Part shown: positions 1 to 40,980 of the stretch, piece by piece | Numbering within the stretch: position 1 is the first letter of the stretch | Layout: the number at the start of each line of letters is the position of its first letter | Source: an uncultured Candidatus Saccharibacteria bacterium | GTDB lineage: Bacteria > Patescibacteriota > Saccharimonadia > Saccharimonadales > AWTP1-31 | Direction of reading: 5' to 3' | Length of the DNA: 64,000 bases | Assembly (NCBI GenBank): GCA_937903325.1 | Contig: CALCZR010000060.1 | Location: 82,404-146,403, forward strand | Translations under genes and position numbers: made by a program | The notes under the pieces: generated by a model | What the model saw: only the letters and a program-made list of their open reading frames with translations | Told to the model about the DNA's origin: nothing | The model's database searches: none

Positions 1-1549
1 CACTCGTAAAATTGCAAGGCTTGGTAGTAAGTGCCTTATCTTCACCGTAAACCGTGTTGTCTAGAGTTTCTACATACGCGCGGTAATGGTACGTTGTGTT
101 ACACGTCAAGCCAGAGATATCCGCTCGATATTCTTCATCTTGGTACAACGGTGCGTATCTGTAGATCCCGCTGGGCGACGAGTCTTTGATAGCCAGTAGC
201 GATCCATCTGGCAGTGCCACCGTATCCTCAACATCTACCCCGATGTCCGATACCCATATACCTTGGGACAGCACCGTCCTGGCAGTTCCTAGCCACAAAT
301 TATCGTTGCTGTCGATCACAAACGAACCCCTCGCTGTGACATAGCCGGTGTCTAGGAAAGTCTCAGCTCCATCAGGCGCAATTTTTTTTACTTTTGCTTG
401 GAGGAAATACTTCACATAAATTGACTGATCGGCACCGATAGCAACACTTGTAGCATCGTCATACACATCACCAAAATGCAGAGGGAGCTCATCAATAACG
501 GCTCCTACCGGGCTATATCGTACGAGCTTGTCATGGAATACCACTAGCACATTGCCGTCAGCCTCTACCGCTATATCTTGGGCGGCCGACTCAACCGATA
601 CGCCACTAACTGACCAGTCGAGTGGCGACGAGCCATCTGTGTTAGAACGCGTAATCTTACCGGAGCTTAGACTATAGAGATGCCCAGAACCATCAGTAGC
701 CAGCTGAGTATATACTTCAGTGCAGTCAATCGGACTATCCTCGGGAGGGCCGCAGCCCCAGTGACTGTTATAGGTATAGTCTGGATTGAGCTTGACCACC
801 CTTGAGTAGCCAGCTGCCACGTAGATGTATCCGCTATTGTCTCGAGCGAGTGCAACAGGATCGAGGGCGCCATATCCATCTAACATTGTGCCAATCTTTT
901 GACCAAATACATACTTCGGTATAATGCCGGCTTGCTTTGTACTGCCATAGCCAGTAGTAGTGCCGTACTCAAAGCCTCGCTCAGTAATGTAGTCGATATT
1001 AGGTGTCCAACCACTCGTAATTTCACCACGTAGTTCAGATGTTTGCTGTGATGTGGCAACATTTGTTCGTGTCTCAACAGAGACCGGGGTAAAAGCATAG
1101 GTCTGCCGTAATTGCAGTACAACTGCCGTCACGAGTAACGTGAGTAGTATCGTTGTATAACCCGACCACAGCAGTACTCTCTTCTTGTAATAAAGTGCCT
1201 TGGGGACAAAAACGGCTTTGGCATGGTGAAGTAACCCATAACGAACATTGGGATCTTCCAACGCAAGCGGTTTTCTGTGTCTTTTGTAGTCAAGCTGATA
1301 ATAGATAGTCAGCACAACTAACAGTACTAGACCCGCGCAACCTATTACAGAAAATATGACAGGATAATCTGGCCTATTACCTGTAAAGAGGACTCTCCAG
1401 GCGTTTCGACTAAGTGAGCTAGTGGGCTTTAGCAACAATGTCACCAAGATCATTAATAGCAAAGACCCAGCTATGATCATAAAATTTTTGCTATGACCGG
1501 TTTTACGGCTGTAAAATCTCGTCCTACTGTTTTTCTTTATCCTACGCAT
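1..1549 (-). CDS. Giant membrane-anchored surface protein, N-terminal ~516 aa only (gene continues past the left window edge); paralog of the 1700-aa protein at 10652..15754
   Basis: Hand translation of the minus strand from ATG 1549..1547 gives MRRIKKNSRTRFYSRKTGHSKNFMIIAGSLLLMILV...TIYYQLDYKRHRKPLA. At the window edge it gives DISGLTCNTTYHYRAYVETLDNTVYGEDKALTTKPCNFTS. Both stretches are colinear with the N-terminal third of 10652..15754. The intervening part of the frame (about 121..1260) was not translated codon by codon. It is absent from the ORF track because no stop codon lies inside the window. Confidence 0.8.
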   Translation of the reverse strand, partial: MRRIKKNSRTRFYSRKTGHSKNFMIIAGSLLLMILVTLLLKPTSSLSRNAWRVLFTGNRPDYPVIFSVIGCAGLVLLVVLTIYYQLDYKRHRKPLALEDPNVRYGLLHHAKAVFVPKALYYKKRVLLWSGYTTILLTLLVTAVVLQLRQTYAFTPVSVETRTNVATSQQTSELRGEITSGWTPNIDYITERGFEYGTTTGYGSTKQAGIIPKYVFGQKIGTMLDGYGALDPVALARDNSGYIYVAAGYSRVVKLNPDYTYNSHWGCGPPEDSPIDCTEVYTQLATDGSGHLYSLSSGKITRSNTDGSSPLDWSVSGVSVESAAQDIAVEADGNVLVVFHDKLVRYSPVGAVIDELPLHFGDVYDDATSVAIGADQSIYVKYFLQAKVKKIAPDGAETFLDTGYVTARGSFVIDSNDNLWLGTARTVLSQGIWVSDIGVDVEDTVALPDGSLLAIKDSSPSGIYRYAPLYQDEEYRADISGLTCNTTYHYRAYVETLDNTVYGEDKALTTKPCNFTS

Positions 1550-1646
1550 AATTAATTAAACTTGGGAAGGTATCTACATACAATCCAATGTTCCAGTACC
1601 CGAGCCGTGTTGGACGGCGTTTCCTCTTGAGCTTTTTCACTGCTTT

Positions 1647-1666
1647 AAGTATAACCGTCTTGACCC
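1647..1666 (-). promoter_or_regulatory. Conserved upstream block of the giant-protein genes (copy 1)
   Basis: AAGTATAACCGTCTTGACCC is identical at 1647..1666 and 15777..15796. Both copies lie upstream (minus strand) of the paralogous giant genes. Read on the minus strand the block contains a -10-like TATACT. Confidence 0.35.
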
Positions 1667-1773
1667 CTATGAACCAGTAGCAATCCACGTTTCGAACTTA
1701 AGCAGCGATACTGCATCACATAACGTTAGCATCGTACCACTATTGCTGTCTTTACAACAATTGCTAATGAAGC

Positions 1774-3267
1774 CTACGCCCTGTAAGATGGCTTGTGCTT
1801 CAGCACGAGCAATAGTGTGACCGTGGCCAGTAAGATTACGCTGAGAATATATACTGACGGAGAGTTTGCACCCGTACCGCCAAGTGGAGATCCGCCATTA
1901 CTAGTGCCTGGTGAAGAGCTGCCTGCTAAGACGTATTCCACAGTGTTGTCACCCAACACGGTTTCGCCGTTGGTTTGCGCATTAGTATCCGTAACCGAGC
2001 CTTCTAGTAGGTTTAGACTGGTGATGCCTGGGTTCATGTTTTGCACACGAGCTTCCCAGGTACCATCGCCCATATCGGTTAAGGCATATACTTCTCCACT
2101 ACTAGCAACGAGGTCGTCAATAGTAAAGCTAGCACCGATAATAGCTTTATTAAAAGATATGGTAAAGCAGGCGTCGTTAGTAGTAGTTGGACTGGCTTGA
2201 CCCAAGCAGCGAGTAACGCTAGCCACTAGTTCCTCGTCGTTGTATAGAACATGCGCCACATTGTTGACGTCGAGCTCAACAACTGCAGCAACTCCGTCGC
2301 CACTACCGAAAACAGTAAAGATTGCCGGATAATCAGGATCGTTGGCGTTGCTGTTAACAAAATCTACGATAACGCCATGTAAAATAGTGTCACCACTCAC
2401 AAAGTCGGCCGTAGCGTTCACATTGAGTTGTACTTCGAAGCTATCACCACTATTAATACGGTTATTGGTTGCCTGGACACCACACCCGATAATTTGTGCT
2501 GAGTAGCCAAAGCCTTCATTTATGGCATCGCCCACCACAGAGCAACCGATCAGGTTGTAGCCATCGCCACCATTTAGGTCAGTGATACTATCGAATGTTG
2601 CCTGTTCTGGCAAGACAAGTAGTACCATCAAGCTCGAGGTATCTGCCCCGCCAGCCCCAACATCTGAGACAGTTATCTTGTAGGCAACCGGGTCTCCCGT
2701 AACAAATGGGCCGGGAGCGGTCTGCTGTAGATCAAGGGTTAGATCTTGAACATCCTGAATCAGCGCACTATCAATAGCCTGGTTATCAGATGTGTCGGGG
2801 TCTTGGTTTGGGAATCCTGGAGCGATATCCCCATCATCGGTTGTGGCAGTGATATCAATATCATCACCATCCTGACCGCTAATCGTACAGACGACATGCA
2901 GGGTTAGGTACTGCCCGGAACCTAGAACCCCGACCCATTCCCCTGTCTGGTCGTCGTAAGTACCAACATTGGTAGCAGTACTAGAACCATTAACAATCAC
3001 GATAGAATCTACATCGCAATTCTGCACCAATACATCGATAATAGTTGCCGTAATAGCCGACGGACCATCGTTATTCACCCGCACATCAAAGCCAATGGTT
3101 CCGCTTGAGGAAGTAGAGTTTGGTACGTTTAGAAGGGATGTCCGCAGGTCGGCTTCGGCAGCAAGGTAGTTACCAAGCTCACTGGTGCTGCCATACCCAT
3201 CGGCTGAGTTATATCCGCGACAGAGACGATTTAAGTCGCGTATTGTCCAAGAAGGGCGGTAAGCCAT
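1774..3267 (-). pseudogene. C-terminal fragment of a beta-helix/DUF11-type wall-anchored surface protein (signal peptide and beta-helix part missing)
   Basis: There is no N-terminal signal peptide. Near the N-terminus, ..GYGSTSELG.. matches the mid-protein GFGATSEFG / GFGSTSEF of the 1162-aa and 665-aa paralogs. DUF11-like repeats follow. The C-terminus is LGGTG plus a hydrophobic stretch plus a basic tail, i.e. an LPXTG-like sorting signal. The 5' end abuts a truncated recombinase. Confidence 0.65.
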
Positions 3268-4265
3268 TGACCGTCAAACGAATGCAATGCATCCTGACAA
3301 ACACTATTTATGCTGGCATTAATGTAGAGAAGTGGACGGGATACAAAGCCGTTAAATGTAAGTTCGATGGATTAATTAGTATCGACTTATTTAACAGAGC
3401 AAATCAGGGCAAGAAGTATATCGCCTTCAATGCAGAGGATGGTGAGTACGAGATTCAGCGGCAAGCACCAAAGAAACATCTAGTCGATAAAGTGATAAAG
3501 AATGCAGATTTTCCTTACAAGAAGCTTGTCTTATGCCCCGAATGCAGCAGTTCGCTGCTTGGTAGCGCAAGTAGGGGCAAGAACGGCAAGTACTACCCCG
3601 CTTATCACTGTAGCAATCGTGGACACTACTTTAGAGTTAGAAAGGATGACATGGATAAAAAGATTACAGAGTTTATCGGCCGCATTAAGGTAAATGATAA
3701 GCAGATCGAAACGCTTATCAGCACTATACGACAAGAGTTCGAACGACGTCAGAGCTTGTCTGGCCAAGACAGTGTGACACTTGATAAACATATTAAATCG
3801 CTCCAAATGGAGGCAGAGGCTACCATAGGTAAGATAATGCTCCTCACTAACCCAACGGCTATCACCTACCTAGAAGCCGAGATAGAAAAGATCCACCAGC
3901 AGATAACTAAACTAGAGAAGGAGAAGAAACAAATGAAGCAGCAAAAACCTATTAATATAGAGCGTATACTAGCGCGTGTACGCTTCTTTATGGAAAATTT
4001 TGATGCACTACTGATAAGGCAGCAAGATCCGCACAAAAAAGCCCAGTTATTCGGTGTATTGTTCAACCAGCTGCCGACCTATGAAGATTTAAATTATGGA
4101 ACACAAAAAACACCCCTTTTTACTGGGGTGAATCCTGTTTTTGCTCTCGCTGGAGCCGGAAAATCCGATATGGTGAACCTCAAGGGGGCTAATTCCGAAA
4201 CCTTGTTAAGTAGCCTCTTTGATCTGGCAACCAAGCTTGCAGCACAGGAGGAGAAAAATGTTTAA
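3256..4265 (+). pseudogene. Large serine recombinase, 5'-truncated (catalytic resolvase domain missing)
   Basis: Homology to the full-length copies (23611..25416, 39234..40946) starts only at ..GKPLTVKRMQCILTNTIYAGINVEKW.. The recombinase domain and zinc ribbon (CPECSSSLLGSASRGKNGKYYPAYHCSNRGH) are retained. The N-terminal ..IRVSTTKQ.. catalytic region is absent. The first ~45 codons of track ORF 3120..4265 are antisense to the neighbouring adhesin fragment. Confidence 0.8.
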
Positions 4266-4737
4266 GCTCTTCCACTGCACCCCTAAAGGCAATCTCACAA
4301 ATACTTCGTTATACAATGAGCAGTCATTCTACGATGCCTTTGTAAAAGACATTAAACGAGCAAAGACAAGCGTGGTTATCGAAAGCCCGTACTTAACCGA
4401 ACGGCGTACTATGCAATTCCTTAGAACATTCTGGAAACTACGAAGGAAAGGGGTTGCGGTTCGTATCAATACACGCAATCCACGACACCACGACAAGCTG
4501 TTAGAGATTCAGGCCTGGAAGTCCATCCGACTTCTTAGAGATAATGGCATCAAGATCTACTTTTACAGTGATATGCGCCACCGCAAGCTGGCGATCATTG
4601 ACAATACAATTCTCTGGGAAGGGTCACTCAACATATTGTCACAGGTGTTCAGCAAAGAAATCATGCGCCGGACAGTATCGGAGCAATTAGCCCGCCAAAT
4701 GGCTAGCTTCACTAAGATCAATAGCCGCTTCTGGTGA
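4258..4737 (+). CDS. PLD/HKD-family (Nuc-like) nuclease/phosphodiesterase
   Basis: It carries a canonical HxK(x)4D(x)6GSxN motif (HRKLAIIDNTILWEGSLN). It is a paralog of 25409..25894. The likely start is ATG 4258, preceded by AGGAGGAG. That start overlaps the recombinase stop in the string AATGTTTAA. Confidence 0.75.
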   Translation: MFKLFHCTPKGNLTNTSLYNEQSFYDAFVKDIKRAKTSVVIESPYLTERRTMQFLRTFWKLRRKGVAVRINTRNPRHHDKLLEIQAWKSIRLLRDNGIKIYFYSDMRHRKLAIIDNTILWEGSLNILSQVFSKEIMRRTVSEQLARQMASFTKINSRFW

Positions 4738-4752
4738 TATACTAAACCCACT

Positions 4753-4962
4753 ATGGCAGATCAAGAACCATACCAGATCACCGAAGAGGATGTTCAAAAG
4801 GTTATTACTTACCTTAAGTTTCACGAGCCTCAAAACGCTAATCGTGAATATGCTATTGAGTTTATAGAGAGTATGCAGGTCAAAGGCAACGAAATTGCCC
4901 GCTCAGATGAAGCCCTCGCTCAAGCCATCGAAGAGTTCACCAAAAAGAAGCATCAAGACTAG
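4753..4962 (+). CDS. Small conserved protein of the recombinase module (69 aa), function unknown
   Basis: It is a paralog of 25910..26110 (YLKFHEPQNANREYAIEFIESMQ versus YLELHDPKNADRDYAIQLLEMMQ). It holds the same position and has the same 4-nt convergent overlap with the XRE gene. Confidence 0.55.
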   Translation: MADQEPYQITEEDVQKVITYLKFHEPQNANREYAIEFIESMQVKGNEIARSDEALAQAIEEFTKKKHQD

Positions 4963-5180
4963 TAGCTATCAGGGAAAACGTCTGAGGCTTTCACGCCCAG
5001 AGCAGCAATAATCTCATACAGCGTTTCAACAGATGCGATAGCAGCACCTTGCTCAAGTGTGGCGTAATAGTTTGCGGTCACTCCTACAACTTCAGCGACC
5101 TCACGCTGCGTGAGCCGCTTGGCTTTACGAGCTTTACGCAGGTTTGATCCGATAGTTTTCTTGAGTTTACGTTCGTTCAT
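4959..5180 (-). CDS. XRE-family helix-turn-helix transcriptional regulator
   Basis: The HTH signature is ..LTQREVAEVVGVTANYYATLEQG.. It is a paralog of 26107..26328. Confidence 0.8.
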   Translation of the reverse strand: MNERKLKKTIGSNLRKARKAKRLTQREVAEVVGVTANYYATLEQGAAIASVETLYEIIAALGVKASDVFPDSY

Positions 5181-5191
5181 GGGTCTTTATG

Positions 5192-5485
5192 CTAGCGCAG
5201 AACCTTGAGTTCGCTACGCTTGGAATATCGCTTCAAATCTTTGAGGAGCATAGAAAACAGGTTGGTATTTTCGTATTCTTCTTTTTCTTGTTGACTGGCA
5301 AACTGAAGGTTCAGGACAAAACGAGTTTGTACTCCAACATTCGGGTGCACACCTCCAAGGGCATAGCCTTTGTGTTCGAATTCGCTTAGGCGGTTCATAG
5401 CCATAAGTGTTCTGTAAGTTTTGCGCACTCGCCAGCGTTTTGGCGTGGCAGCAATGTATATGTACGTTTTCCCAGTACTCTCCAT
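5192..5485 (-). CDS. Hypothetical 97-aa protein (possibly a remnant; starts ..TGKTY.. like the tail of a P-loop)
   Basis: This is an ORF only. It sits between TyrRS and the XRE gene on the same strand, and no recognisable family motif was seen. Confidence 0.35.
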   Translation of the reverse strand: MESTGKTYIYIAATPKRWRVRKTYRTLMAMNRLSEFEHKGYALGGVHPNVGVQTRFVLNLQFASQQEKEEYENTNLFSMLLKDLKRYSKRSELKVLR

Positions 5486-5527
5486 ACCAATAGTATGGTG
5501 TGGTATGGAAAAGTTTGCAACTGCTAA

Positions 5528-6664
5528 CTAGTTCGAACCACCCATCACTCTATCAAGTTCAGCAAGCATGTTCTTAGGCTCGCCCGAAGCAAATACGGTT
5601 CTGGCTGGTTTAAGCTTTCTAACAATACCCTCGGCGACAAAATTCTTTAGATCCTGGGGATGAAGATCACCATTAGCAAATGTGGTTTTCAACTCTGTTA
5701 TATTTTTGCAGTGTAGGTCACCGCCGTGATTTTCCGCACGTCGGACAGTAAAACCATCAGGACTATTTAGTAGATGTTCTACCCAGTCGATGATCGGGTT
5801 AAACTCGACTTCTCGTTCAGGACAAAATGCTTTAGCGATCTTGCGGCGAATGTCATCTTCTGAGTCATGAATGAAGATAGCGCTATCGGGCTTGGACTTA
5901 CTCATCTTCATACTTGTCCAAATATCTTGTTTTGACTCTTGGTCAACAATTGGCCAAACGGACGGCTTTTGAAGACCAAGAATAAGGTGATGGTGGATGG
6001 CTACTGGCTTAACTTTCTTACCATCAATAACGAGTGGTGAAATATTGAGCTTCAAAGCCACATCACGAGCAATAACTTGTGCCTTTCTCTGATCAAGCCC
6101 TGCATGCGGAAAATGTACTTGTTGCGTAAATATATCGGCAACTTGCATCATTGGGTATAGCAGCTTAGAAAAGTCTACACTGTCACCCTCCTGCCGCCCC
6201 ATAATAGTGATGCTACGCTTGGCTCGGCTTAATGAGGTGTGCTTGCTAACCTCTACGACTGTATCCCAAAAGTGGGGGTGCGTACTGTAGAGCTCGCTGC
6301 CCAGAGTAAACTTCAGGTCGTCTGGGTTTCCGCCGACACATGCAAACGCTGCACGCAGGCCTTCCTTAAAGTATCCAACGGCAACTCTCTTAATCGTATC
6401 GTGTGATCCGTCTAGCTTATCGTTAATCCATGTATGCCAGTCTGCCAGAAAGACATTGCACTCAATACCAGCATCATGCAGGTCTTTAACTTTTTGCATA
6501 CACATTAGTCCGGTGCCCAAGTGAATCTTGCCCGAAATTTCAAAACCAATGTAATGACGTAACTTTTGACCACTAGCAAGAAGAGCGTTTAGGTCGTCGC
6601 TGGTCATTACTTCTTCGGTTTGTCTGGATATGAGCTGTGCTCGTTCTTCAAGTGTCATGGTCAA
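5528..6664 (-). CDS. tyrS: Tyrosyl-tRNA synthetase, archaeal/eukaryotic type
   Basis: It is a class I aaRS with a HIGH-like motif (GKIHLGT) and KMSKS. Recalled from memory, it aligns along its length with the M. jannaschii-type TyrRS: YIGFEISGKIHLG, YPMMQVADI, DQRKAQVIARD, KMSKSKP..IRRKIAKAFCP, NPIIDW, HGGDL, LHPQDLKN. Confidence 0.85.
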   Translation of the reverse strand: MTMTLEERAQLISRQTEEVMTSDDLNALLASGQKLRHYIGFEISGKIHLGTGLMCMQKVKDLHDAGIECNVFLADWHTWINDKLDGSHDTIKRVAVGYFKEGLRAAFACVGGNPDDLKFTLGSELYSTHPHFWDTVVEVSKHTSLSRAKRSITIMGRQEGDSVDFSKLLYPMMQVADIFTQQVHFPHAGLDQRKAQVIARDVALKLNISPLVIDGKKVKPVAIHHHLILGLQKPSVWPIVDQESKQDIWTSMKMSKSKPDSAIFIHDSEDDIRRKIAKAFCPEREVEFNPIIDWVEHLLNSPDGFTVRRAENHGGDLHCKNITELKTTFANGDLHPQDLKNFVAEGIVRKLKPARTVFASGEPKNMLAELDRVMGGSN

Positions 6665-6679
6665 TACCTCGTATTATAT

Positions 6680-6755
6680 TGGTCCGGAGGGTAGGAGTCG
6701 AACCTACCTAAACTGGTTTTACAGACCAGCGCATCTGCCGCTTTGCTACCTCCGG
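6680..6755 (-). tRNA. tRNA-Tyr(GTA): tRNA-Tyr (anticodon GTA), archaeal-like: C1:G72, A73, 5-nt variable loop, encoded CCA
   Basis: Minus-strand sequence: CCGGAGG TA GCA AAGCGGCAGA TGC G CTGGT CTGTAAA ACCAG TTTAG GTAGG TTCGACT CCTAC CCTCCGG A CCA. This folds into a 76-nt cloverleaf by hand. It lies 15 nt upstream of the TyrRS start. Confidence 0.9.
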
Positions 6756-6768
6756 ATATTTGCCAAAC

Positions 6769-6804
6769 AAAAAAGCCGTTCCGTGCATATTGCACAAGAA
6801 CGAC
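6769..6804 (-). terminator. Intrinsic terminator of the T-box leader
   Basis: GUCGUUCUUGUGCA-AUA-UGCACGGAACGGC forms about 13 bp with one bulge and is followed by UUUUUU (6774..6769). The 5' arm is shared with the antiterminator 3' strand. Confidence 0.8.
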
Positions 6805-7040
6805 TTAGAAATCGTGGTACCATCTTGCTTCGCTTCATCCTCACGGAAGAAGCCTTACTAACTGAACCGAATCAGTTGTAGCTATAACGGGCTTACCCGT
6901 CGAGTCTTACTGGCATTACTGCTTTCTGGCTCGCTGCTCCGAGGGAGTAATTCAGTTACTGTAATCTACGACAGGCTCGCAACACCGCCTGCTTCAATTG
7001 TCACGATTACGAACCTACTTGGTCCTCTTCAACGCGTTTG
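6769..7040 (-). promoter_or_regulatory. T-box riboswitch leader (tyrosine-specific candidate)
   Basis: Elements seen on the minus strand:
- Stem I base GCGUUGAAGAGGACCAAGUAGG
- distal hairpin CAGGC-GGUGUUGCGA-GCCUG
- UAC triplets at 6963..6961 and 6949..6947
- F-box CCGUUA at 6890..6885
- Stem III GCUUCUUCC-GUGA-GGAUGAAGC at 6853..6832
- antiterminator CAAGA/UCUUG plus ACGA/UCGU around the 7-nt bulge UGGUACC (6822..6816)
- a competing terminator. Confidence 0.8.
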
Positions 7041-7061
7041 GCTAAATTGTTAAGCCTTCAT

Positions 7062-7090
7062 ACTCTAGCAGATTTATTTGAATATGTAAA
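7062..7090 (-). promoter_or_regulatory. Candidate sigma70-type promoter for the T-box/tRNA-Tyr/tyrS transcript
   Basis: On the minus strand, TTTACA (7090..7085), a 17-nt spacer and TAGAGT (7067..7062) lie just upstream of the leader. Confidence 0.45.
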
Positions 7091-7105
7091 GCTAAAGCTT
7101 CTGAT

Positions 7106-7795: not shown

Positions 7796-7930
7796 AAGCT
7801 CATGATATCAGATAAAAAATTCGTTACTTAAAAGTAATGCATCGTCTGTAACATTTTTGCCATAATGGTGTTATCATGTTATCAGATACAAGAACAGAGG
7901 TAGGCGGGGTGAGGCTACCCGAGGACACCC

Positions 7931-10627: not shown

Positions 10628-10651
10628 ATAATAACGCAGACAACCATCTAT

Positions 10652-26847: not shown

Positions 26848-26853
26848 CTCCTG

Positions 26854-33053: not shown

Positions 33054-33062
33054 ATCATTATT

Positions 33063-35060
33063 CTAGTTCCTAGAATTTATACCAGCTCGTTTTATTGCAT
33101 ACACCGCACCAATAATGACAAGTGTTGCAATAGCGGATACTAATCGTACACTCTGTCCTGTATTAGCTAGATTGCCGCCATTCGAATTATTGTTAGTATT
33201 AGTGTCGTCGCTAATTATGGCGGCCATTATCGTTTGGTCGCCCAATATTGCGCTGAATTCACTTGTGGAACCAAAACCATCCGTTGAAGCATCTTTTTCG
33301 GTCGTAGTAGCTGTAATGGCATAACTACCGTCTGAGAAGGTCGTAGGAATAGTAAGTGTAGCTATTTCTCCAGCTACACTAGCCGCAATGTCTTTGCTTC
33401 CAAGGTAAAATTCACCTTGGCCATATCCATTTATGTCTGCTGAGCTATTTGCATAGAACTCGATTCTGTAACCATTAGTTGCAGTATCATCTACATCTAA
33501 ATCAAAATCAATAATTAGGCTACCCTTGGTTGCGGAAGTGGAGTTTACAACAGGGAAATTCAGGTAGTCATTTGAGCCAGTGTCAATATCGTTAGCGTCA
33601 TTTAGATTTGGCCCCAAATCTGTGTCAGGAGACCGATCGCCATTTGAGTCATCTACAAGATCAATTCCCATAACCGAATTGTTATATATGCTATTGCCAA
33701 TTAGAGTATTACTGTCTGGCACTAATGAAGCTATAGAAATAGCGTTTACAGAAATTCCAGTTTGATTATAAGCAATTGTGTTGGCTTCAGTGGTATTTGT
33801 TCCCCCAATAATATTGTCAGCTGCTGAAGCTGCAATAATTATACCTGAAGGACTACCAACTACGCCATCACTACCATCCACAAGTGCACCTATCTTGTTA
33901 GATTGAACCACGTTAAAGTCTCCTAACACTGCCATGCCGGCATAGCCATTTCCAGAAATTACATTGTCTATAATTGAACTATTGTCACTTGATAAATACA
34001 CACCTAGTAATGAATTCCCAATACTAGCATCACCTGAAGCGTTTAACCCAATTATATTACCAATAATGTCGACTGAATCACCTTGAACTGCTAACCCGTT
34101 ATAATTTCCGGAGACAACATTAGTTGAACCAAATTCGGTACCGCCGATGAGAATATCTGAGGCGCCACTGCCCGAAATTCCCACACCAGAGTCTTCATTC
34201 CCAAGGCTTGATAAACCCGTTGAGTCAATTCCAATATAGTTACCTTGTACAGTCCAATTAATGCTTCCACCAGATATTGCTATGCCTTCGTTTCCATTAG
34301 AACCTCCGCTGTCGTTATTATCAGAGATAAGATTACGTTCACTCGGCAATAAGCCACCAACTCTAATATCATCACTAGTAAGTTCTGACCTACTTCCTAT
34401 CCCCCTGGAGCCATTGCCTTTGCCTATTATTCCCGTTGGATCAGTTCCGATATAATTACCTGTTATAATTATCTCGTCAGCCCCCTGCAGTGCTATACCG
34501 TCTCCCGGAAAGCTATTTATAACCAAGCCAGAAAATATAGAATCGTTCACGTTTGCCGACAAATTTAATCCATTTCCAGTTGCACCCCCGATATTGCTAC
34601 CATCAATTTCAATTAAAAGCACTCCATTCATAGGTTCTGGAGCGTTAGAAGAGTTAGGTTGAGCACCAGGCTGTGAATAACCATTGACTATAGTTGTTTC
34701 AGTAATTATAGGAAGTTGCGTACTAGGAAATATCGTGTATCCACTCTGTCCGCTGATGGTAAAGTCTGGCGCACCAGAAATGTTAAAATTAATCGTAGAA
34801 GTATCAGCATTTGAATTGGCTTCCTCGATCGCCGCTCTTAATGTACAGTTACCAACTCCATCATTGCATTGGCCATCGCCTACATTATTATCGACGCTAT
34901 CTAACGTTGAGTCGACTGTAATTCCATTTGATAGATCTATGTCTGCTGCTCGTGTAGACTCCGGGTTCAAGAGGAAGACGACAACAATAGCCAAAATAAC
35001 GACAGTGAAATATCTAAAAAAATTACGTATTATATTGGACTTTCTAAAATCTGCTATCAT
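33063..35060 (-). CDS. Wall-anchored beta-helix surface protein (665 aa), LANTG sorting signal
   Basis: An N-terminal TM/signal is present. It is colinear with the N-terminal half of 16493..19981 (..CTLRAAIEEANSN.., ..VNGYSQPGAQPN..). The C-terminus is LANTG plus a hydrophobic stretch plus a basic tail. Confidence 0.75.
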   Translation of the reverse strand: MIADFRKSNIIRNFFRYFTVVILAIVVVFLLNPESTRAADIDLSNGITVDSTLDSVDNNVGDGQCNDGVGNCTLRAAIEEANSNADTSTINFNISGAPDFTISGQSGYTIFPSTQLPIITETTIVNGYSQPGAQPNSSNAPEPMNGVLLIEIDGSNIGGATGNGLNLSANVNDSIFSGLVINSFPGDGIALQGADEIIITGNYIGTDPTGIIGKGNGSRGIGSRSELTSDDIRVGGLLPSERNLISDNNDSGGSNGNEGIAISGGSINWTVQGNYIGIDSTGLSSLGNEDSGVGISGSGASDILIGGTEFGSTNVVSGNYNGLAVQGDSVDIIGNIIGLNASGDASIGNSLLGVYLSSDNSSIIDNVISGNGYAGMAVLGDFNVVQSNKIGALVDGSDGVVGSPSGIIIAASAADNIIGGTNTTEANTIAYNQTGISVNAISIASLVPDSNTLIGNSIYNNSVMGIDLVDDSNGDRSPDTDLGPNLNDANDIDTGSNDYLNFPVVNSTSATKGSLIIDFDLDVDDTATNGYRIEFYANSSADINGYGQGEFYLGSKDIAASVAGEIATLTIPTTFSDGSYAITATTTEKDASTDGFGSTSEFSAILGDQTIMAAIISDDTNTNNNSNGGNLANTGQSVRLVSAIATLVIIGAVYAIKRAGINSRN

Positions 35061-37860
35061 GATTTCCTCTATGTTGCATATATTTTAGCATAAGTACTAA
35101 CGATAACAACCCTAATAATCCAGACAATATGACGAAAATTATTGCATTATTGTTCATGTTATCTACATTGTTAAATTTTGCTTCACTATTATCATTGAGA
35201 TCAAAATCTTTGATATCGCCAGTATCTCCTCTTTTGCTAAATTCACTAGAATTTAAATCTCTGTCTACGAAGTTATCAATATTCGTATGAGTATTTACTA
35301 TCTTATCTGCCCACGGCGTCGGATTAGAGCCGATAGCAATCAAAGGGTAAGAGTCGGATACAGAACCATTCTTTCGCTGTAAACTAATTTCACTGCTCTC
35401 TGGAGACAAAACTTGATTATATTCAAAAAATACTATTTTTCCGCTGTTACTATCATCCTTAAATCCTATGTCATTATTAACTGCATAGGCATACCCGTGA
35501 GCTGGAACTACGCTACCTCCTGGAAATTTCTTAGTAAGTCCTCTTACGGACCAACCCGTTATATCAACTGCTTCGCTCGTAGGATTGTATAGCTCTATAT
35601 ATTGATAGCTACTATTACCGTTTGACCTTGATACTATCCCATTGATTTTTACATTAGCGTTAGCGTTTTGTACATTCGGAATAAGACCCCTGTTAACATA
35701 ATCAGTTAAAAACTTATCGCCCTGTTTATTTAAAGCATATTTTAGGATAAAAAACTTATTAGCAACTGAGTAAGGTTTATATGAATCATGCATATCGGGT
35801 AAGTCGGATAAAGCAATTCCACCGCCCGTAGCGCTATCTAACGCTCCCTGCAACACAAGTGGATCATCTGGGTTTAAACCAAGAATATTGGAGATGTAAT
35901 CTCTTGTTGGTTGAATCCTTTCCTCGTATTGTTGGGTATACCATTTCTGGCCGTCAAGCTCCGCAGCTGTTAATGCAGTAGTAATCTCTTCATCAGCCCA
36001 TCTCTGAATATCACCTGATCCATAAACTTCATCTACTAGAGTTCTGACTCTTCGCTTATACATACTTTGAAGTACTGGATCATCCCAAATAGCAGTAAAG
36101 ACATAACGTTGGCTGGTAAGGATATATGGCGCCGTATCATAGGGACTAATCATATCTCCGTAGCCTTGAGGTATACCATTTGGGCTGATATTAAAATTCA
36201 TACTTAAATCTAGGTCCCATGGTAGATATGACCAGCGTTCGCGACTTGAAGAATTATAGATACTAAAGAGGTTCGATTCAGAACTCCAATCATGGCTTCT
36301 GGAAACCGCTTCAGCCGCCATAAGGTTAATTGCGCTTGCAATGTCTACTTTGTTGATCAAGAAATTGCGTTTATCCTCTCCAGTTTTTGTGTCTAGTGCA
36401 TTCCTTAATCCCTCAATCCTAGATAGATCATCGTCATCTGGCTGAACTTTTTCATATTGATCTTCATAAATTTCGGCAGTTTTATAGTCCTGGTTTCTAT
36501 CTAGCCATTCTTTTTCATATTTTTCAGCTAACGTATATGCTCCTTCGAAGCTCCCATTTCTCTGTAATTGAACTTTTACAACTTGCGGGACAGGAAATCC
36601 GGCGAGTTTAAAAATCCTCCAGGAAAGTAGTGAAACAACATATCTATCATCTGCAAATTCTGAGTTAAGATGGAATTCACCTAGAGGAAAATCCAATATA
36701 CCAGGCATTTCTAGTGAATATCCTTTTGGAAGTTTAAATTTAAGTGGTTTTTTTGAGTAACTTCGTGACGACTCACCCTTTAATCGGACCTTGGTATTAT
36801 CGATAACTTCATTACCATAGGCTATAACTGCATAGTAATATGTGTCATCTTGATTGGGATTATGAATTAACGAGTTATAGTTGTCATCCGATATATACCA
36901 TTGCAATCGCGGCGTAGAACCTCCCTCTTGAGATATATCTCTGACGACATATCCTTTATAGCCAACAGTATCATCCGTACCCGGCAGGCTAACGTAACTG
37001 CTAGTGTTGCTTGCCGTAACCTTGTAGCGTACTAAACTACCGGCTGTTTGGGTGGGTATGTTAACTGAGAATATGTTGTCTCCTGCAGTTACGTCAGCTC
37101 CAGTGCCGTTGTCATTCATAGCTACAGTTACTTCCGTCTCAAACATAACTTTGTAGACAAGGTTAACTGTGGTCACGTTGCTGGCGCTTACAGTAATGGT
37201 TGGACTGTCAGTCGGTTGTATGGTTTCCAAGCTGCTGGTGTTGCTTGGAGTACTGAGGTTGGTAAGAATTGGTAGGTCAGCTGAAGTTAGGCTATTCTCG
37301 GTTCCAGGCGTGCCGTCATTGACAAGACTAGCTCCCCAGCTGGTTGCTTGGTTGTTGTCTAGGTTCGGTCCCTTGAGTTCTAGGGATGGTCCAGTGCCAT
37401 CAGGAGAGACTGGCCAAGGATTAGAGTCAGAGTAAGTCACAGTATCTATGAGGTTAGAGTTACTGTCTTTAAGTTCAAGCTTCTCTCCGCTGTTCTTAAG
37501 ACCTCCAGAGTAGACATGGGAGACGGTAATTCCATATGTAGCTAAGGATTGAGAGGTACTGGGGGACAAGACAAGGTAGCTGTTGCCAGTTATTGTAGTG
37601 CTGTTCGGAAAGCAGTAATCGATACCGTCAGTAAAGCACCAGCCACTGATGTCTTGGGCGTCGGGCGAGTTGTTGTATAGCTCTAGGAATTCGTCATTAC
37701 CGTCATCGGACAGGGGGTTATACATTAGTTCGTTGATGGTTATGTCGGTAGAGGCTGCCTGGACTCGTTTATTCAAAGGGCTTGATTCAAATAAACCAAA
37801 AATAGCTAAGAATATAGCCATAGTATATGTCAGTTTTTTATAAAGTCTCTTTGTTTTCAA
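35044..37860 (-). CDS. LTD-CotH-LTD protein (938 aa) with C-terminal TM anchor
   Basis: ITINELMYNP..DEFLELYNNSPDAQDISGWCF marks the N-terminal LTD. A CotH-like centre follows. YQYIELYNPTSEAVDITGWSV marks the second LTD. It is a paralog of 19962..22298 and overlaps the adhesin gene by 17 nt. Confidence 0.7.
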   Translation of the reverse strand: MKTKRLYKKLTYTMAIFLAIFGLFESSPLNKRVQAASTDITINELMYNPLSDDGNDEFLELYNNSPDAQDISGWCFTDGIDYCFPNSTTITGNSYLVLSPSTSQSLATYGITVSHVYSGGLKNSGEKLELKDSNSNLIDTVTYSDSNPWPVSPDGTGPSLELKGPNLDNNQATSWGASLVNDGTPGTENSLTSADLPILTNLSTPSNTSSLETIQPTDSPTITVSASNVTTVNLVYKVMFETEVTVAMNDNGTGADVTAGDNIFSVNIPTQTAGSLVRYKVTASNTSSYVSLPGTDDTVGYKGYVVRDISQEGGSTPRLQWYISDDNYNSLIHNPNQDDTYYYAVIAYGNEVIDNTKVRLKGESSRSYSKKPLKFKLPKGYSLEMPGILDFPLGEFHLNSEFADDRYVVSLLSWRIFKLAGFPVPQVVKVQLQRNGSFEGAYTLAEKYEKEWLDRNQDYKTAEIYEDQYEKVQPDDDDLSRIEGLRNALDTKTGEDKRNFLINKVDIASAINLMAAEAVSRSHDWSSESNLFSIYNSSSRERWSYLPWDLDLSMNFNISPNGIPQGYGDMISPYDTAPYILTSQRYVFTAIWDDPVLQSMYKRRVRTLVDEVYGSGDIQRWADEEITTALTAAELDGQKWYTQQYEERIQPTRDYISNILGLNPDDPLVLQGALDSATGGGIALSDLPDMHDSYKPYSVANKFFILKYALNKQGDKFLTDYVNRGLIPNVQNANANVKINGIVSRSNGNSSYQYIELYNPTSEAVDITGWSVRGLTKKFPGGSVVPAHGYAYAVNNDIGFKDDSNSGKIVFFEYNQVLSPESSEISLQRKNGSVSDSYPLIAIGSNPTPWADKIVNTHTNIDNFVDRDLNSSEFSKRGDTGDIKDFDLNDNSEAKFNNVDNMNNNAIIFVILSGLLGLLSLVLMLKYMQHRGNHDSRF

Positions 37861-37945
37861 TTGACAGTCATCCCTCGTGATCTTACTAGTGCTTAGTATA
37901 CCTTATGTCAAGGGTTGGACAAATGGTTTTAAATCTTGCTATAGA

Positions 37946-37975
37946 ACCTTGTCGCCTTAGCGACAAGGTGACTTG
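37946..37975 (-). terminator. Conserved hairpin immediately after the replication-relaxation-like gene, copy 2
   Basis: The minus strand reads CAAGTC ACCTTGTCGC-TAAG-GCGACAAGGT, a perfect 10-bp stem. The flank and stem are identical to copy 1 at 22392..22419 apart from one compensating change. Confidence 0.45.
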
Positions 37976-38803
37976 CTATTTCGGAGAAATATCAAGTTTA
38001 ATTAGCTCATCCTCGCCTACTTCATGCCATATTTTAGCGTTATTATCTATTGAAGCATGAAACTGTTTTAAAGTAGTTGTATAGAATTTAACAACCGCCT
38101 CAGAATAGCTTAACTTCTTAGCGATGAATTTATGTAATGTTTTCTGGGTACTATCTAGTTCGGTTAAGATCAGCACGCTTGGGTAGTCTCTGTCTGTATC
38201 CTGCCATTCATCTGAAGCACAGTGCTTCAGATAGCTAGTTATCTTACGTTTAACGAGCAGTACTTGAGCTAGGTCTTTGACGCATTCAAGATAATACTCT
38301 TTTGCTTTCTCTTGACTGTTCGGTTTAAGTAAAGCGTCAGGAAGCATTTCTGACAGATCCTCTTGTCCAGATAGCTCAATAGCCGTATAGATACTAAAAG
38401 TATCGGGGTAGAGCCTCCTAAGCGTATTGTAGAGCTTAAATATGTTTAGGGAATGATTGATAAAGTGTTGACTGGCTGTTTTATCCCTATAGAGCCTTTT
38501 TAGAACGCTGGGCTTAAAGATATCTAAATTTTTAAGGATATTAATACCTTTAGGTAATATGTAGTACTCAGCGTATCTTCGATCTATACGGTAACTACTA
38601 TCGTAATGACGTCCTATATATTCTTGGTCTAGTAATACTTTTAATCTATTACTATGAGTAGCTTGATACTTATGACCTTGAGCAGTCATGAGTAAGTCTA
38701 CAGTTAGATATCTAAATTTATACAGTAGTTTAAGTATTAGTAGCTGCTTACTATTTAGCGGTCTTCTGTATGCAGGTTGTTTAGGTGATTTAGTTGTAGT
38801 CAT
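37976..38803 (-). CDS. Replication-relaxation (Replic_Relax)-like protein
   Basis: It is a paralog of 22420..23250 and is alignable end to end. Confidence 0.5.
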   Translation of the reverse strand: MTTTKSPKQPAYRRPLNSKQLLILKLLYKFRYLTVDLLMTAQGHKYQATHSNRLKVLLDQEYIGRHYDSSYRIDRRYAEYYILPKGINILKNLDIFKPSVLKRLYRDKTASQHFINHSLNIFKLYNTLRRLYPDTFSIYTAIELSGQEDLSEMLPDALLKPNSQEKAKEYYLECVKDLAQVLLVKRKITSYLKHCASDEWQDTDRDYPSVLILTELDSTQKTLHKFIAKKLSYSEAVVKFYTTTLKQFHASIDNNAKIWHEVGEDELIKLDISPK

Positions 38804-38977
38804 GATAATTGTTCTTAGTTATGGATAGATTGAGTGGTTTAATTTTAAGGTTGATGAAGATTTATAGTGGGTATTATTGTTTGGAAGTCTAGCTCGTCAG
38901 TCATTGGTTGTTATTCTCCTTATAGAATATATAAAAATAAAGAGAATACCGACATACATTTTACAGGTTAAAGAACA

Positions 38978-39013
38978 ATATATAGACACTATACGGTACT
39001 AGTGTCTATATAT
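38978..39013. repeat. Perfect 14-bp inverted repeat with 8-nt spacer in the RepRelax/recombinase divergent intergenic region
   Basis: The sequence is ATATATAGACACTA-tacggtac-TAGTGTCTATATAT. The left arm and the flanking CCACAGGAA block are conserved at ~23360..23400 in the sister element. Confidence 0.7.
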
Positions 39014-39108
39014 CCACAGGAAAGTTTAAACTTTATAGAAAATATCACTTGAACTATTCTTTAAAGCATAGTAAACTATTCATATAAGAATAGTTATATG
39101 AGGGTATC

Positions 39109-39249
39109 ATGGCTAGAACAAAAGGATCAAAAAATCATACAGAACAACCTCCAAAAGAGGTACTAAATTCTGAAGAAGATAAGCTACAAATACTTGCCGA
39201 TATACTGTTCGATATTGTGTCCGAGGAGCTATCATGCAAGACCAATTAG
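39109..39249 (+). CDS. Conserved 46-aa acidic sORF overlapping the recombinase start
   Basis: It was hand-translated as MARTKGSKNHTEQPPKEVLNSEEDKLQILADILFDIVSEELSCKTN. It has the same length and arrangement as 23487..23627. Confidence 0.5.
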   Translation: MARTKGSKNHTEQPPKEVLNSEEDKLQILADILFDIVSEELSCKTN

Positions 39250-40946
39250 CAACCAAAAATGCGGTTGTTGCCATACGTGTTTCGACTACTAAGCAAGGCA
39301 CTGACGGCGATTCTCCAGAAGCTCAAAAAGAGCAAATAGAGCGCTTTGCTGAAACTAAAGGAATAGTAATAAAGAAGTACTTTGTATTTATGGAGTCAGC
39401 CTCTAAGGCCCAACAACCCATGCAAGAGGCTGTAGATTACTGTAAGAACCCTAAGAACAAAATAAACCTCTTTATTATTAAGTCGATTGATCGTTTTACT
39501 CGTGGAGGATCATTATCCTACGATTTACTTAAAAACCAATTAGACGCATGCAGAGTGAACTTAGTAGACATCTACGGCGTTATTAGCTCTACACAGGTCA
39601 ATACAATGGAACATCTAGGACTTGAATATAAATGGAGTATTTATTCGCCCAGTAAAAAGTCAGAAATATTAGAGGCCGAACGCTCAAAGGACGAACTACG
39701 AGATATCATGAGTCGCATGATCGGAGCCGAAGTCCGATATACCCGAATGGGCTACTGGATGCGTCGTCCACCGTATGGCTTTACAAGTGAAAAGGTTGAT
39801 ACCCAACACGGCAAGCGCACAATACTTATTCCACATCCAATTGAATCAAAATTCATGATAAAGATGTTTGAGCTTCGGGCAACCAGGCTACACACCGACA
39901 GAGAAATAGTCGATAAGATTAATGCAATGGGTTATCGATCCAGAGTTAAAAAACTATATAGCAAGACTAAAGGCCAGACCACTAGTCAGTCAGACGGAAC
40001 GCTTCTAAATGAGAGGCACTTGTGGCGCTTAATGCGTAGTCCTATTTATGCAGGTGTTAATGTCGAAAAATGGACAGATAATGAGCCCGTTAAATGCATG
40101 TTCGATGGATTAGTCTCATTAGAGCTATTTAATAAAGCTAATCGGGGCAAGCGTACTATCGTAGAGCACTCAAATAGTAAGATATCTATTTATGACACCA
40201 CTCCTCCCGAACACTTAACTAATAAGGGTAAAAGAAATATAGATTTCCCATACAAGAAGTTCGTCATGTGCCCACAGTGCAATAAACCTCTTCTTGGCAG
40301 TGCTTCTAGAGGTAAGAGTGGTAAATACTATCCTGCGTACCACTGCAATAAAAGAGGTCATAACTTTAGAGTTAGTAAACAAGACTTAGAAAACACAGTT
40401 AGTGACTTCATTAGCGATCTACATATATCTCCAGAGAAACTAGAAAAAGTCTTTGAAGCTATAGATATGTCTTGGGAGCGTGTCAACGCAGAATACAAGG
40501 CCAACATTAATAGTCTTGACGGGCGCATACAAGTACTCGAGGACGAGGTTAGGCTAACAGTCGGCAAACTTAAGGTTCTAAGCAGCGATACGGCAATTAA
40601 ATACATGGAGGAGGATCTAGTGAGACTAGAGAAAGAAATAGTAACTTTAAAACAAGATAAGGAAGCCATGAAAGTTAAAAAACCACTTGATATCAGCAAA
40701 GCTAAGGCTAGGGTTAAGTACTTCGTCGAACACCTCGATGAATTACTTAAACAACAGATTGATCCTATCAAAAAAGCACAGTTTTTCGGAGTAATATTCA
40801 ATAAGGTTCCGAACTACGAAGATATAAAAAGTCGAACACAAAAAACACCCCAATTTTCAGGGGTGAATTCGTTATTTACTCTCGCAAATATCAATAATTC
40901 TCATTTGGTGACCTCACGGAGAATCGAACTCCGATTGCCGGGATGA
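39234..40946 (+). CDS. Large serine recombinase (integrase); last 13 codons and stop lie inside tRNA-Glu
   Basis: The catalytic region is AVVAIRVSTTKQGTDGDSPEAQ and the zinc ribbon is CPQCNKPLLGSASRGKSGKYYPAYHCNKRGH. The C-terminal ..HLVTSRRIELRLPG* is encoded antisense to the tRNA 3' half. Confidence 0.9.
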   Translation: MQDQLATKNAVVAIRVSTTKQGTDGDSPEAQKEQIERFAETKGIVIKKYFVFMESASKAQQPMQEAVDYCKNPKNKINLFIIKSIDRFTRGGSLSYDLLKNQLDACRVNLVDIYGVISSTQVNTMEHLGLEYKWSIYSPSKKSEILEAERSKDELRDIMSRMIGAEVRYTRMGYWMRRPPYGFTSEKVDTQHGKRTILIPHPIESKFMIKMFELRATRLHTDREIVDKINAMGYRSRVKKLYSKTKGQTTSQSDGTLLNERHLWRLMRSPIYAGVNVEKWTDNEPVKCMFDGLVSLELFNKANRGKRTIVEHSNSKISIYDTTPPEHLTNKGKRNIDFPYKKFVMCPQCNKPLLGSASRGKSGKYYPAYHCNKRGHNFRVSKQDLENTVSDFISDLHISPEKLEKVFEAIDMSWERVNAEYKANINSLDGRIQVLEDEVRLTVGKLKVLSSDTAIKYMEEDLVRLEKEIVTLKQDKEAMKVKKPLDISKAKARVKYFVEHLDELLKQQIDPIKKAQFFGVIFNKVPNYEDIKSRTQKTPQFSGVNSLFTLANINNSHLVTSRRIELRLPG

Positions 40947-40980
40947 AAACCCGATTTCCTAACCGTTAGAAGATGAGGCC
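40906..40980 (-). tRNA. tRNA-Glu(TTC): tRNA-Glu (anticodon TTC), encoded CCA
   Basis: Minus-strand sequence: GGCCTCA TC TTCT AACGGTTA GGAA A TCGGG TTTTCAT CCCGG CAAT CGGAG TTCGATT CTCCG TGAGGTC A CCA. This folds into a 75-nt cloverleaf by hand. Confidence 0.9.

Follow-up and report, generated by a model that had tools for sequence, protein, structure and literature searches.

Integrative and conjugative elements (ICEs), integrative and mobilizable elements (IMEs) and cis-mobilizable elements (CIMEs) of Firmicutes are known to accrete in tandem at the 3' ends of tRNA or protein genes, as in ICESt1/ICESt3 and the tRNA-Lys island of S. agalactiae (PMC5704250). Here we describe a head-to-tail array of three related elements (E0, E1 and E2) at the 3' end of a tRNA-Glu(UUC) gene in a Saccharibacteria chromosome. 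The window analysed is a stretch of 64,000 nucleotides within a 283-kb metagenome contig (CALCZR010000060.1), and the array occupies its positions 1..40905 together with 4.6 kb further to the left. As we read it, the array resembles the Firmicutes cases in that a newcomer integrates at the attachment (att) site adjoining the target gene, where it comes to lie alongside a resident element that is often decayed, and in that the elements have a common orientation and related but diverged integrases, with a composite island as the result. The Firmicutes cases rely on tyrosine integrases and long att identity, whereas the elements described here carry a large serine recombinase and have 6-8 bp in common at their junctions. 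Moreover, the host is a Patescibacterium, and the open reading frame (ORF) of the recombinase spans the element's own att site (attP).

A second comparison is with the ssrA islands of Dehalococcoides (PMC3146451) and the staphylococcal cassette chromosome (SCC), which also use a serine recombinase and the 3' end of a small essential gene, build up in tandem downstream of the target and lose the integration module from older islands. The ssrA islands have a 20-bp direct repeat, a T-loop insertion and a DsiB/DsiA pair related to CcrB/CcrA (PMC3146451). In contrast, the present array has a single type of recombinase, with no second recombinase gene within the elements among the window ORFs and their Pfam matches, a core of 6-8 bp at the CCA end, and conjugation genes. 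The CcrB model scores the recombinase at 27.5 bits against a cut-off of 900, and the pairing of a CcrB-family recombinase with a small partner that marks SCC and the ssrA islands was not found.

A further comparison concerns the conjugation genes. Patescibacterial type IV secretion systems (T4SSs) resembling mating-pair formation type FATA (MPF_FATA) have been described as chromosomal, with few relaxases, and as probably co-opted for another function (Quinonero-Coronel et al., 2025; PMC12102498). Their gene set is that of E2 and E1, with a VirB2-like pilin, a VirB6-like protein, a VirB3/PrgI-like protein, VirB4 and a coupling protein. Recombinases and tRNA sites are unmentioned in that study, whereas here the cluster lies between mapped att junctions and a Replic_Relax protein is present. 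No published description of these elements was found in the literature searched, whose coverage is incomplete. Tandem accretion itself is a known process; the new points are a T4SS within a mobile element and a recombinase gene that is cut by integration.

Integration is known to cut element genes elsewhere. The integrase genes of SSV-type archaeal elements are split when the element enters a tRNA gene; in these, as in the integration-dependent immunity of mycobacteriophages, attP lies within a gene of the element. There, as here, integration alters the product of that gene. Unlike in those cases, the gene in this array encodes a serine recombinase, and the change is confined to its final 30-45 residues, which give way to 13 residues translated from the tRNA antisense strand.

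The gene order of the Saccharibacterial elements is a nuclease, a small protein and an XRE regulator, then cargo or T4SS genes, a Replic_Relax (MobC-class) protein, a short ORF (sORF) and a large serine recombinase. All three units begin with the nuclease, small protein and XRE module, with a nuclease of the Mrr type in E0 and of the PLD type in the other two. Beyond the left part of E0 lie PK, PGK and TIM, with PK/PGK ~45.5 kb from tRNA-Glu. The array was assembled identically in several samples, and an Rfam scan of the whole window returned two tRNAs and nothing else. The region is very probably the product of a tandem accretion of three related integrative elements, followed by decay. The recombinase at the right end of each element targets the extreme 3' end (CCA and acceptor strand, TGGTGA on the plus strand) of tRNA-Glu(UUC) and leaves the tRNA intact, and each element supplies its own terminator, starting 40 nt downstream of the tRNA. 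In the proposed course of events, each newcomer would be inserted between the resident element and the tRNA. With insertion at the tRNA side, E0 would therefore be the oldest, followed by E1 and then E2. The elements and their boundaries are as follows.

1..4170, plus strand: E0, the right-hand 4.2 kb of a decayed element of ~8.8 kb whose left end, at -4625, is outside the window
4101..4130, minus strand: element-borne terminator, E0 copy, antisense within the recombinase 3' coding region
4171..4176, no strand: E0/E1 junction core TGGTGA
4171..25279, plus strand: E1, 21.1 kb, with left module, host-type block, coupling protein, surface cargo, Replic_Relax, sORF and recombinase
25210..25239, minus strand: element-borne terminator, second copy, at the E1 recombinase 3' end
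25280..25285, no strand: E1/E2 junction core TGGTGA, placed by comparison with L092
25280..40905, plus strand: E2, 15.6 kb, AT-richer, the sole copy with T4SS channel genes
40836..40865, minus strand: element-borne terminator at the tRNA, beginning 40 nt downstream of the tRNA-Glu 3' end
40906..40980, minus strand: tRNA-Glu(UUC), the integration target, whose 3'-terminal TCACCA is the junction core

The common core TGGTGA, the complement of the 3'-terminal TCACCA of tRNA-Glu, occurs at -4625 (left of the window), 4171, 25280 and 40906 (the tRNA 3' end), and the layout at every junction is the same: the recombinase 3' end, a terminator hairpin, ~35 nt and then TGGTGA. Alignment of the three recombinase 3' ends reveals a conserved 32-mer, with TGGTGA ~35 nt further on. 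Read on the minus strand, this 32-mer is an intrinsic terminator (CACCCC-loop-GGGGTG-T6) with folding z-scores of -2.1 to -3.5, and it is also detected by a terminator scan. The same terminator stands at +40 in nine further tRNA-Glu-associated loci, and variants with a changed but still pairing stem stand at +37 and +42 in L011 and L013 (L numbers denote the related or matching loci and contigs used for comparison). The 32-mer was itself considered as the crossover site and ruled out, given its distance of 35-40 nt from the mapped junction, its minus-strand terminator form and the compensated stems of L011 and L013.

The element ends were placed at the TGGTGA cores because of three independent comparisons. 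The 1.6-kb contig L092, which comes from a different sample, matches positions 25280..26034 of the window (755 nt) at 100% identity, and left of 25279 its identity to the window is 56-83% per 100 nt. Mrr-type elements in L017, L019 and L081 have left arms homologous to that of E0 from TGGTGACCCA on, whereas the sequence on the other side of the core is not shared: on this contig and in L019 the core is adjoined by the hairpin of a native tRNA terminator, and L017 has the 3' end of a decayed recombinase there. Finally, the tRNA-Lys elements of L080 and L084 have the same junction layout around the core TGGAGGGC, the shared stretch reaching 13 nt in L080. Other tandem junctions of this kind are present in L017 and L106. 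The array thus combines elements of one orientation, a single target and a hybrid att site at each internal junction, as in a composite island, and its short crossover core without long flanking direct repeats is that of serine integrases. The sequence-only reading of this stretch had set the boundaries at the recombinase 3' ends; they do lie there, the exact cores at 4171 and 25280 falling 95 and 137 nt inside the recombinase ORFs. Long att repeats (attL) in the style of tyrosine integrases were also considered and dropped, since upstream repeats of the tRNA 3' end reaching 9 nt were absent from 60 of 61 loci, the exception being a 12-nt match in L084.

The habit of targeting tRNA 3' ends extends across the recombinase family. 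Among 80 recombinase loci fetched, nearly all from metagenome-assembled genomes (MAGs) of Saccharibacteria or other Patescibacteria, a convergent tRNA is found where the recombinase gene ends in 61 (the window counted), and in 60 of these 61 the recombinase ORF, including its stop, overlaps the tRNA gene; most loci in which no tRNA was seen break off less than 100 nt beyond the recombinase. The tRNAs targeted are those for Glu, Leu, Lys, Gly, Gln, Arg, Phe and Val. Similarity between recombinases predicts the target: in 45 of 57 cases the nearest-neighbour recombinase targets a tRNA for the same amino acid, whereas 500 shuffles gave a mean of 13 and at most 25. The E1 recombinase has its closest relative (79% identical) at a tRNA-Glu, in keeping with E1 having at one time adjoined the tRNA directly. 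A Replic_Relax gene stands just upstream of the recombinase in 55 of the 66 loci with enough sequence. PF13814, listed as MobC-class (PMC5357655), is matched by 39 of 48 members of this Replic_Relax family; NCBIfam and PDB sequence searches with the protein returned a winged-helix (MarR-like) N-terminal match only. Coupling proteins are present in 21 loci, and full channel clusters lie no more than 10 kb from the recombinase in L040 and L051. Such a family provides simple, predictable tRNA-3'-end sites, with specificity tracking clade, in organisms whose genetic manipulation is very difficult.

Beyond this set, L097 (tRNA-Gly) and L100 (tRNA-Pro) hold further serine recombinases that are too distant for tblastn with the window recombinases and that also overlap the 3' end of a convergent tRNA; the overlap may extend beyond the window's recombinase family. 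L030, L040, L043, L044, L046, L047 and L059 come from MAGs labelled Gammaproteobacteria, Methylococcaceae, Limisphaerales, Pseudomonadales or Micrarchaeota, and these are either mis-binned Patescibacterial contigs or signs of a wider host range.

A search of JGI metagenomes with the 3' 36-mer of tRNA-Glu gave 24 loci, 22 of which have no recombinase beside the tRNA. At most of these recombinase-free sites a hairpin terminator directly abuts TGGTGACC, and in L114, L120 and L128 PK/PGK (65-69% identical) lie 1.9-5.4 kb from tRNA-Glu in the window orientation. The sequence-only reading had named a lack of empty-site variants in related genomes as grounds for giving up the proposal, and the check, once run, produced these 22 sites. 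A move closer to the present is suggested by L092, whose identity to the left end of E2 in a different context points to a recent move of E2 or of its neighbour and is the one indirect sign of mobility. For the species itself, the products of excision can be predicted: the E2 circle junction would read AATAATTCTCATTTGGTGAGCTTATCGAGATC, the E1-tRNA joint TAATTTTCCTCTGGTGACCTCACGGAG, the E2-free joint GATAATTTTCCTCTGGTGACCTCACGGAGAATCG and the fully empty site GATCGCTTTTATCTGGTGACCTCACGGAGAATCG. The predicted E2 attP was not found in JGI metagenomes, from which the species' proteins are not recorded, making this a weak negative. Exact-protein look-ups with five window proteins found no empty site, circle or E2 free of its insertion sequence (IS), all contigs being colinear with the array, and an IMG/VR scan with the recombinase gave no match.

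PK-PGK-TIM lie on one side of tRNA-Glu in the window, L114, L120 and L128 and on the opposite side in L023, L025 and L038, which suggests inversions around tRNA-Glu across Saccharibacteria. Inversion of the whole array was also entertained for this placement and proved unneeded, L114, L120 and L128 being empty in the window orientation.

The recombinase gene is itself altered at the junction. In both the E1 and E2 proteins the resolvase catalytic domain (PF00239) is matched, with the motif IRVSTTKQ near both N-termini, and PF07508 is matched at 33.3 and 23.2 bits (cut-off 21.1); the zinc ribbon PF13408 scores 21.4, 17.9 and 19 bits, below its cut-off of 25.3. The recombinase ORFs read through the core and have two kinds of ending. 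Beside the tRNA, the protein ends in 13 residues from the tRNA antisense strand (LVTSRRIELRLPG), while at internal junctions it runs into the left arm of the next element, with its stop overlapping the start codon of the nuclease. Tails of the Mrr type read LVTHVDQTWNSVLKGLEQIDAAFDEL..., and this left-arm frame is conserved as protein: the tail codons of L019 and L081 comprise 18 identical, 8 synonymous and 6 non-synonymous ones. The PLD-type tails of E2, L080 and L084 are mutually homologous, and that of E1 is a shorter version. Database fragments of the family end in antisense-tRNA peptides or in varied tails, often with a W-N...L pattern, and in L106 the recombinase and tail are followed by a further gene where the nuclease would be.

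On the evidence of these frames, attP is placed within the recombinase ORF, and integration would swap the recombinase C-terminus. The enzyme encoded by the excised circle would have ~602 aa and be translationally coupled to the nuclease, and the integrated form would have 570 aa and be uncoupled. As for function, integration may trade a conserved amphipathic C-terminal tail for an antisense-tRNA peptide and uncouple the recombinase from the nuclease operon, in which case the swap could set the direction of recombination without a separate directionality factor. The two recombinase forms thus offer a testable idea on direction control in serine integrases. A broader proposal is that tRNA-3'-end serine-recombinase elements across Patescibacteria are the conjugative vehicles of the supposedly chromosomal, relaxase-less T4SSs, with the tail swap as a built-in sensor of integration state; we put this forward tentatively and consider it rather improbable in full.

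Overlapping the start of the recombinase is a 46-aa sORF that is conserved in all nine aligned loci and falls into two subtypes, one of which starts with the basic MARTKGSKN and both of which close with an acidic LADLLLE helix. The product may serve in regulation or as a directionality factor. Upstream of the sORF-recombinase pair, at 23330..23486 and 39020..39108, there is a conserved block (TTGAACTATCC...TATAGTAAACTAT...TATAAGGATAG), also present in L005, L006, L008, L011, L017, L019 and L023, with a palindrome CTATCC..GGATAG followed by a Shine-Dalgarno sequence. The block resembles a promoter with an operator, and it could be the target of the XRE protein. An inverted repeat with a 15-bp stem at 38977..39014, between the E2 Replic_Relax gene and the sORF, is a candidate origin of transfer (oriT) or operator.

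How far the three units have diverged was measured by blastp between proteins whose names are backed by Pfam and NCBIfam matches. Identity is 51% between the NHL/His-kinases (1..1549 vs 10652..15754), 60% between the E1 and E2 recombinases (23611..25416 vs 39234..40946), 64% between their PLD nucleases, 60% between their Replic_Relax proteins, 37% between their LTD-CotH proteins and 33% between the beta-helix proteins at 16493..19981 and 33063..35060. The truncated E0 recombinase (taken as 3120..4265) is 41-44% identical to those of E1 and E2, in an alignment confined to residues ~236-579, and the E2 coupling-protein stub is 58% identical to residues 785-895 of the E1 coupling protein (7931..10627). 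A self-blastn of the window gives colinear same-strand matches only, at 65-78% identity. Third-codon identity at conserved four-fold-type residues is 0.26-0.39 and thus saturated, and the GC content is 0.33-0.43 in E2 genes, 0.44-0.49 in E1 genes and 0.46 in the host flank. The sequence-only reading had proposed three diverged integrative elements stacked in one orientation at tRNA-Glu, and the colinearity in both searches, which it had asked for, and the att junctions bear this out. Its ORF coordinates each correspond to a real ORF, and its description of paralogs that align easily as proteins while differing heavily at synonymous sites, the rightmost being AT-richer, agrees with these values. 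The saturation likewise upholds its exclusion of a recent segmental duplication.

E0 begins on the left with the Mrr-type nuclease, its small protein and XRE, followed by an NHL/His-kinase of 1665 aa, a surface protein of 497 aa and the truncated recombinase, and it has neither coupling protein nor channel genes. The following lie in the window.

1..1549, minus strand: NHL-repeat/histidine-kinase, N-terminal part; the gene runs on leftward, and the full 1665 aa are present in L001
1774..3267, minus strand: 497-aa membrane-anchored repeat protein, weakly related to the E1 beta-helix/DUF11 protein
3246..4265, plus strand: truncated recombinase, lacking residues ~1-235 (catalytic domain), with its last 31 codons (4171..4265) from the E1 left arm

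E1 has retained the coupling protein and encloses a block of host type.

4258..4737, plus strand: PLD nuclease, left module
4753..4962, plus strand: small protein, left module
4959..5180, minus strand: XRE regulator, left module
5192..5485: 97-aa ORF with no assigned function, just left of the host-type block
5528..7795, minus strand: host-type block, with archaeal-type TyrRS (5528..6664), tRNA-Tyr (6680..6755) and Asp/Glu racemase (7106..7795)
7931..10627, plus strand: type IV coupling protein, 898 aa, intact ORF
10652..15754, minus strand: NHL/His-kinase, cargo
15870..16487, minus strand: 205-aa ORF, cargo
16493..19981, minus strand: beta-helix/DUF11 protein, cargo
19962..22298, minus strand: LTD-CotH, cargo
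22420..23250, minus strand: Replic_Relax (MobC-class) putative relaxase, 26.3 bits against a cut-off of 25.3
23487..23627, plus strand: 46-aa sORF, overlapping the recombinase start
23611..25416, plus strand: large serine recombinase, 601 aa, with its last 45 codons (25280..25416) from the E2 left arm

The host-type block measures 2.3 kb and lies between XRE and the coupling protein, where channel genes would sit; no remnants of T4SS genes were found in 5100..8000. The tRNA-Tyr is 16 nt upstream of TyrRS on the same strand. Orthologs of the block are 80-84% identical and elsewhere have an ordinary chromosomal context beside AlkZ, NUDIX, CTP synthase and L19, and in the relative L100 the racemase is inverted relative to tRNA-Tyr. 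The 350-nt non-coding stretch between tRNA-Tyr and the racemase (6756..7105) has no Rfam match to a T-box or other known RNA. PADLOC gave generic PLD and HTH matches only for the left-module proteins, with no defined defence system.

E2 is the one unit with channel genes.

25409..25894, plus strand: PLD nuclease, left module
25910..26110, plus strand: small protein, left module
26107..26328, minus strand: XRE, left module
26503..26847, plus strand: VirB2-like pilin
26854..28128, plus strand: pilin-VirB6/TrbL-like protein
28125..28628, plus strand: PrgI/VirB3-like protein
28603..29214, plus strand: TrsD-like VirB4 N-domain
29211..30980, plus strand: VirB4 ATPase, CD1110 family, 345.7 bits against a cut-off of 325
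30977..31390, plus strand: 137-aa ORF
31378..32645, minus strand: IS3-family insertion sequence, with imperfect terminal inverted repeats and no target duplication
32646..33053, plus strand: coupling-protein 3' remnant, whose homology to 10283..10627 begins exactly at the IS end
33063..35060, minus strand: 665-aa beta-helix-related protein, cargo
35044..37860, minus strand: LTD-CotH, cargo
37976..38803, minus strand: Replic_Relax protein
39109..39249, plus strand: 46-aa sORF
39234..40946, plus strand: large serine recombinase, 570 aa, whose final 13 codons and stop lie in antisense tRNA-Glu sequence

By its CD1110-family match, the E2 VirB4 is of the Firmicutes/Actinobacteria/Tenericutes/Archaea type that defines MPF_FATA. 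Its division into a TrsD-like N-domain and an ATPase recurs in L040 and L051, and the split is natural rather than a product of decay. The coupling-protein homology resumes exactly at 32646, and therefore ~2.35 kb was deleted beside IS3.

The decay deduced from these genes takes a different form in each element. E0 would have lost its relaxase and the recombinase catalytic domain, E1 its channel genes, and E2 2.35 kb of the coupling-protein gene beside IS3. The intact T4SS-bearing versions would then be ICEs, with an MPF_FATA-like channel, a coupling protein and a MobC-class Replic_Relax relaxase, and the channel-free versions mobilizable elements. None of E0, E1 and E2 combines a coupling protein with a full mating-pore set; the intact-looking relatives L040 and L051 carry both. 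Much of this had been noticed in the sequence-only reading. Its view that E0 has no recombinase catalytic domain is confirmed by blastp and Pfam, and E1 does have an intact coupling protein and no channel genes, as it stated; E1 is indeed a stacked element, but not the clean one it described, given the enclosed TyrRS/tRNA-Tyr/racemase block. It was also right that E2 pairs channel genes with a coupling-protein stub, but missed that the stub is a deletion product adjoining IS3. It mentioned neither the host-type genes and the insertion sequence nor the 4.6 kb of E0 beyond the left edge of the window. Finally, the beta-helix fragment it reported at 1774..3267 is a real ORF, but its kinship to 16493..19981 is weak (E=2e-4, 23% identity), with no Pfam match.

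Other origins for the array have to be weighed against accretion. The common gene order and orientation of the segments could come from duplication in place followed by divergence, or from an assembly that stacked strain variants. Saturated synonymous sites, a GC content 6-10 points apart between E1 and E2 and the change of nuclease family from Mrr in E0 to PLD in E1 and E2 all contradict this, as do the att-site architecture at every junction and the E1 recombinase, which is nearer to that of another genome (79%) than to that of E2 (60%). Contigs spanning the junctions are identical across independent assemblies, and 65-78% DNA identity between copies is too low to confuse an assembler. This explanation is effectively refuted and retains almost no probability. 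The complementary gene content raised another idea, the composite unit of the sequence-only reading, in which the E2 channel would be served by the coupling protein of E1 and selection would keep the array as one conjugative or secretion unit. The intact 898-aa coupling protein is in E1 and the channel genes are in E2 only, the C-terminus that E2 retains is 58% identical to that of the E1 coupling protein, and every contig with the E2 channel genes also has the IS-truncated stub, so that the loss is fixed in the sampled population. However, nothing beyond this complementarity speaks for co-function or co-selection, and truncation beside an IS without target duplication is a hallmark of accidental decay. 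Further T4SS or coupling genes may be present elsewhere in the genome, E1 also holds unrelated host genes, and no E1+E2 excision product was found. We consider such a composite unit unlikely.

A more serious contender is that the three units are fixed, immobile relics whose surface-protein, kinase and T4SS genes have been domesticated by the host, which would agree with the published view of Patescibacterial T4SSs as chromosomal and non-conjugative. Each element is without at least one essential mobility function, E1 encloses the essential-type pair of TyrRS and tRNA-Tyr, all samples checked share one arrangement with no circle or empty site found, and most Patescibacterial T4SS clusters have no relaxase (PMC12102498). 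Yet the left end of E2 occurs 100% identical in a different left-hand context (L092), the E2 recombinase, Replic_Relax and sORF are intact ORFs, and the GC content of E2 is still foreign. We regard present immobility of the whole array as quite possible, if on balance improbable; it concerns current activity only and is compatible with an origin by accretion.

Several observations also weigh against accretion by mobile elements in the order given above. No element of the array is autonomous now, and no excised circle or empty site was found in the species' own population. To our knowledge, characterised serine integrases do not recombine attP with attR; the tandem junctions imply exactly such an exchange, and the family must therefore tolerate an element arm as the distal half-site. 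The Replic_Relax protein is a putative relaxase by family match, and no oriT was identified, the stretch that separates the Replic_Relax gene from the recombinase gene showing no more than conserved repeats and a palindrome. The arrival of the TyrRS/tRNA-Tyr/racemase block inside E1 is unexplained. The order of E1 and E2, which we infer from decay and GC content only, could be reversed, with L092 fitting equally an E1-type element that arrived at the left end of E2.

If accretion is nevertheless the origin of the array, as we favour, it bears on the open question of what Patescibacterial T4SSs do. A complete channel cluster between att junctions, a MobC-class protein and intact coupling proteins in relatives make conjugation testable for some of these systems. 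In genomes of ~1 Mb, a decayed stack of 45 kb that encloses TyrRS and tRNA-Tyr affects which genes of MAGs are called core or accessory, and if this TyrRS/tRNA-Tyr pair is the sole one of the genome, E1 cannot be lost.

Some further features were noted in passing. In L019 (5941-7050, 7529-8890) and L023 (2348-3439, 3508-5472) a reverse transcriptase lies beside an FGE-sulfatase/C-type-lectin-like-domain protein, a pair that looks like a diversity-generating retroelement carried as cargo. The E1 NHL/kinase gene contains a perfect 30-nt repeat (13838..13867 and 13979..14008). To the right of the tRNA, a 694-aa Ala/Pro-rich protein has an internal repeat (41699..41907 and 41996..42204), and a 36-nt pair with 94% identity lies at 51313..51348 and 55163..55198. 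A 56-nt repeat (91% identical) at 41101..41156 and 43831..43886 stands just upstream of the secreted-protein genes 41177..43261 and 43837..45480 and is probably a shared promoter or leader.

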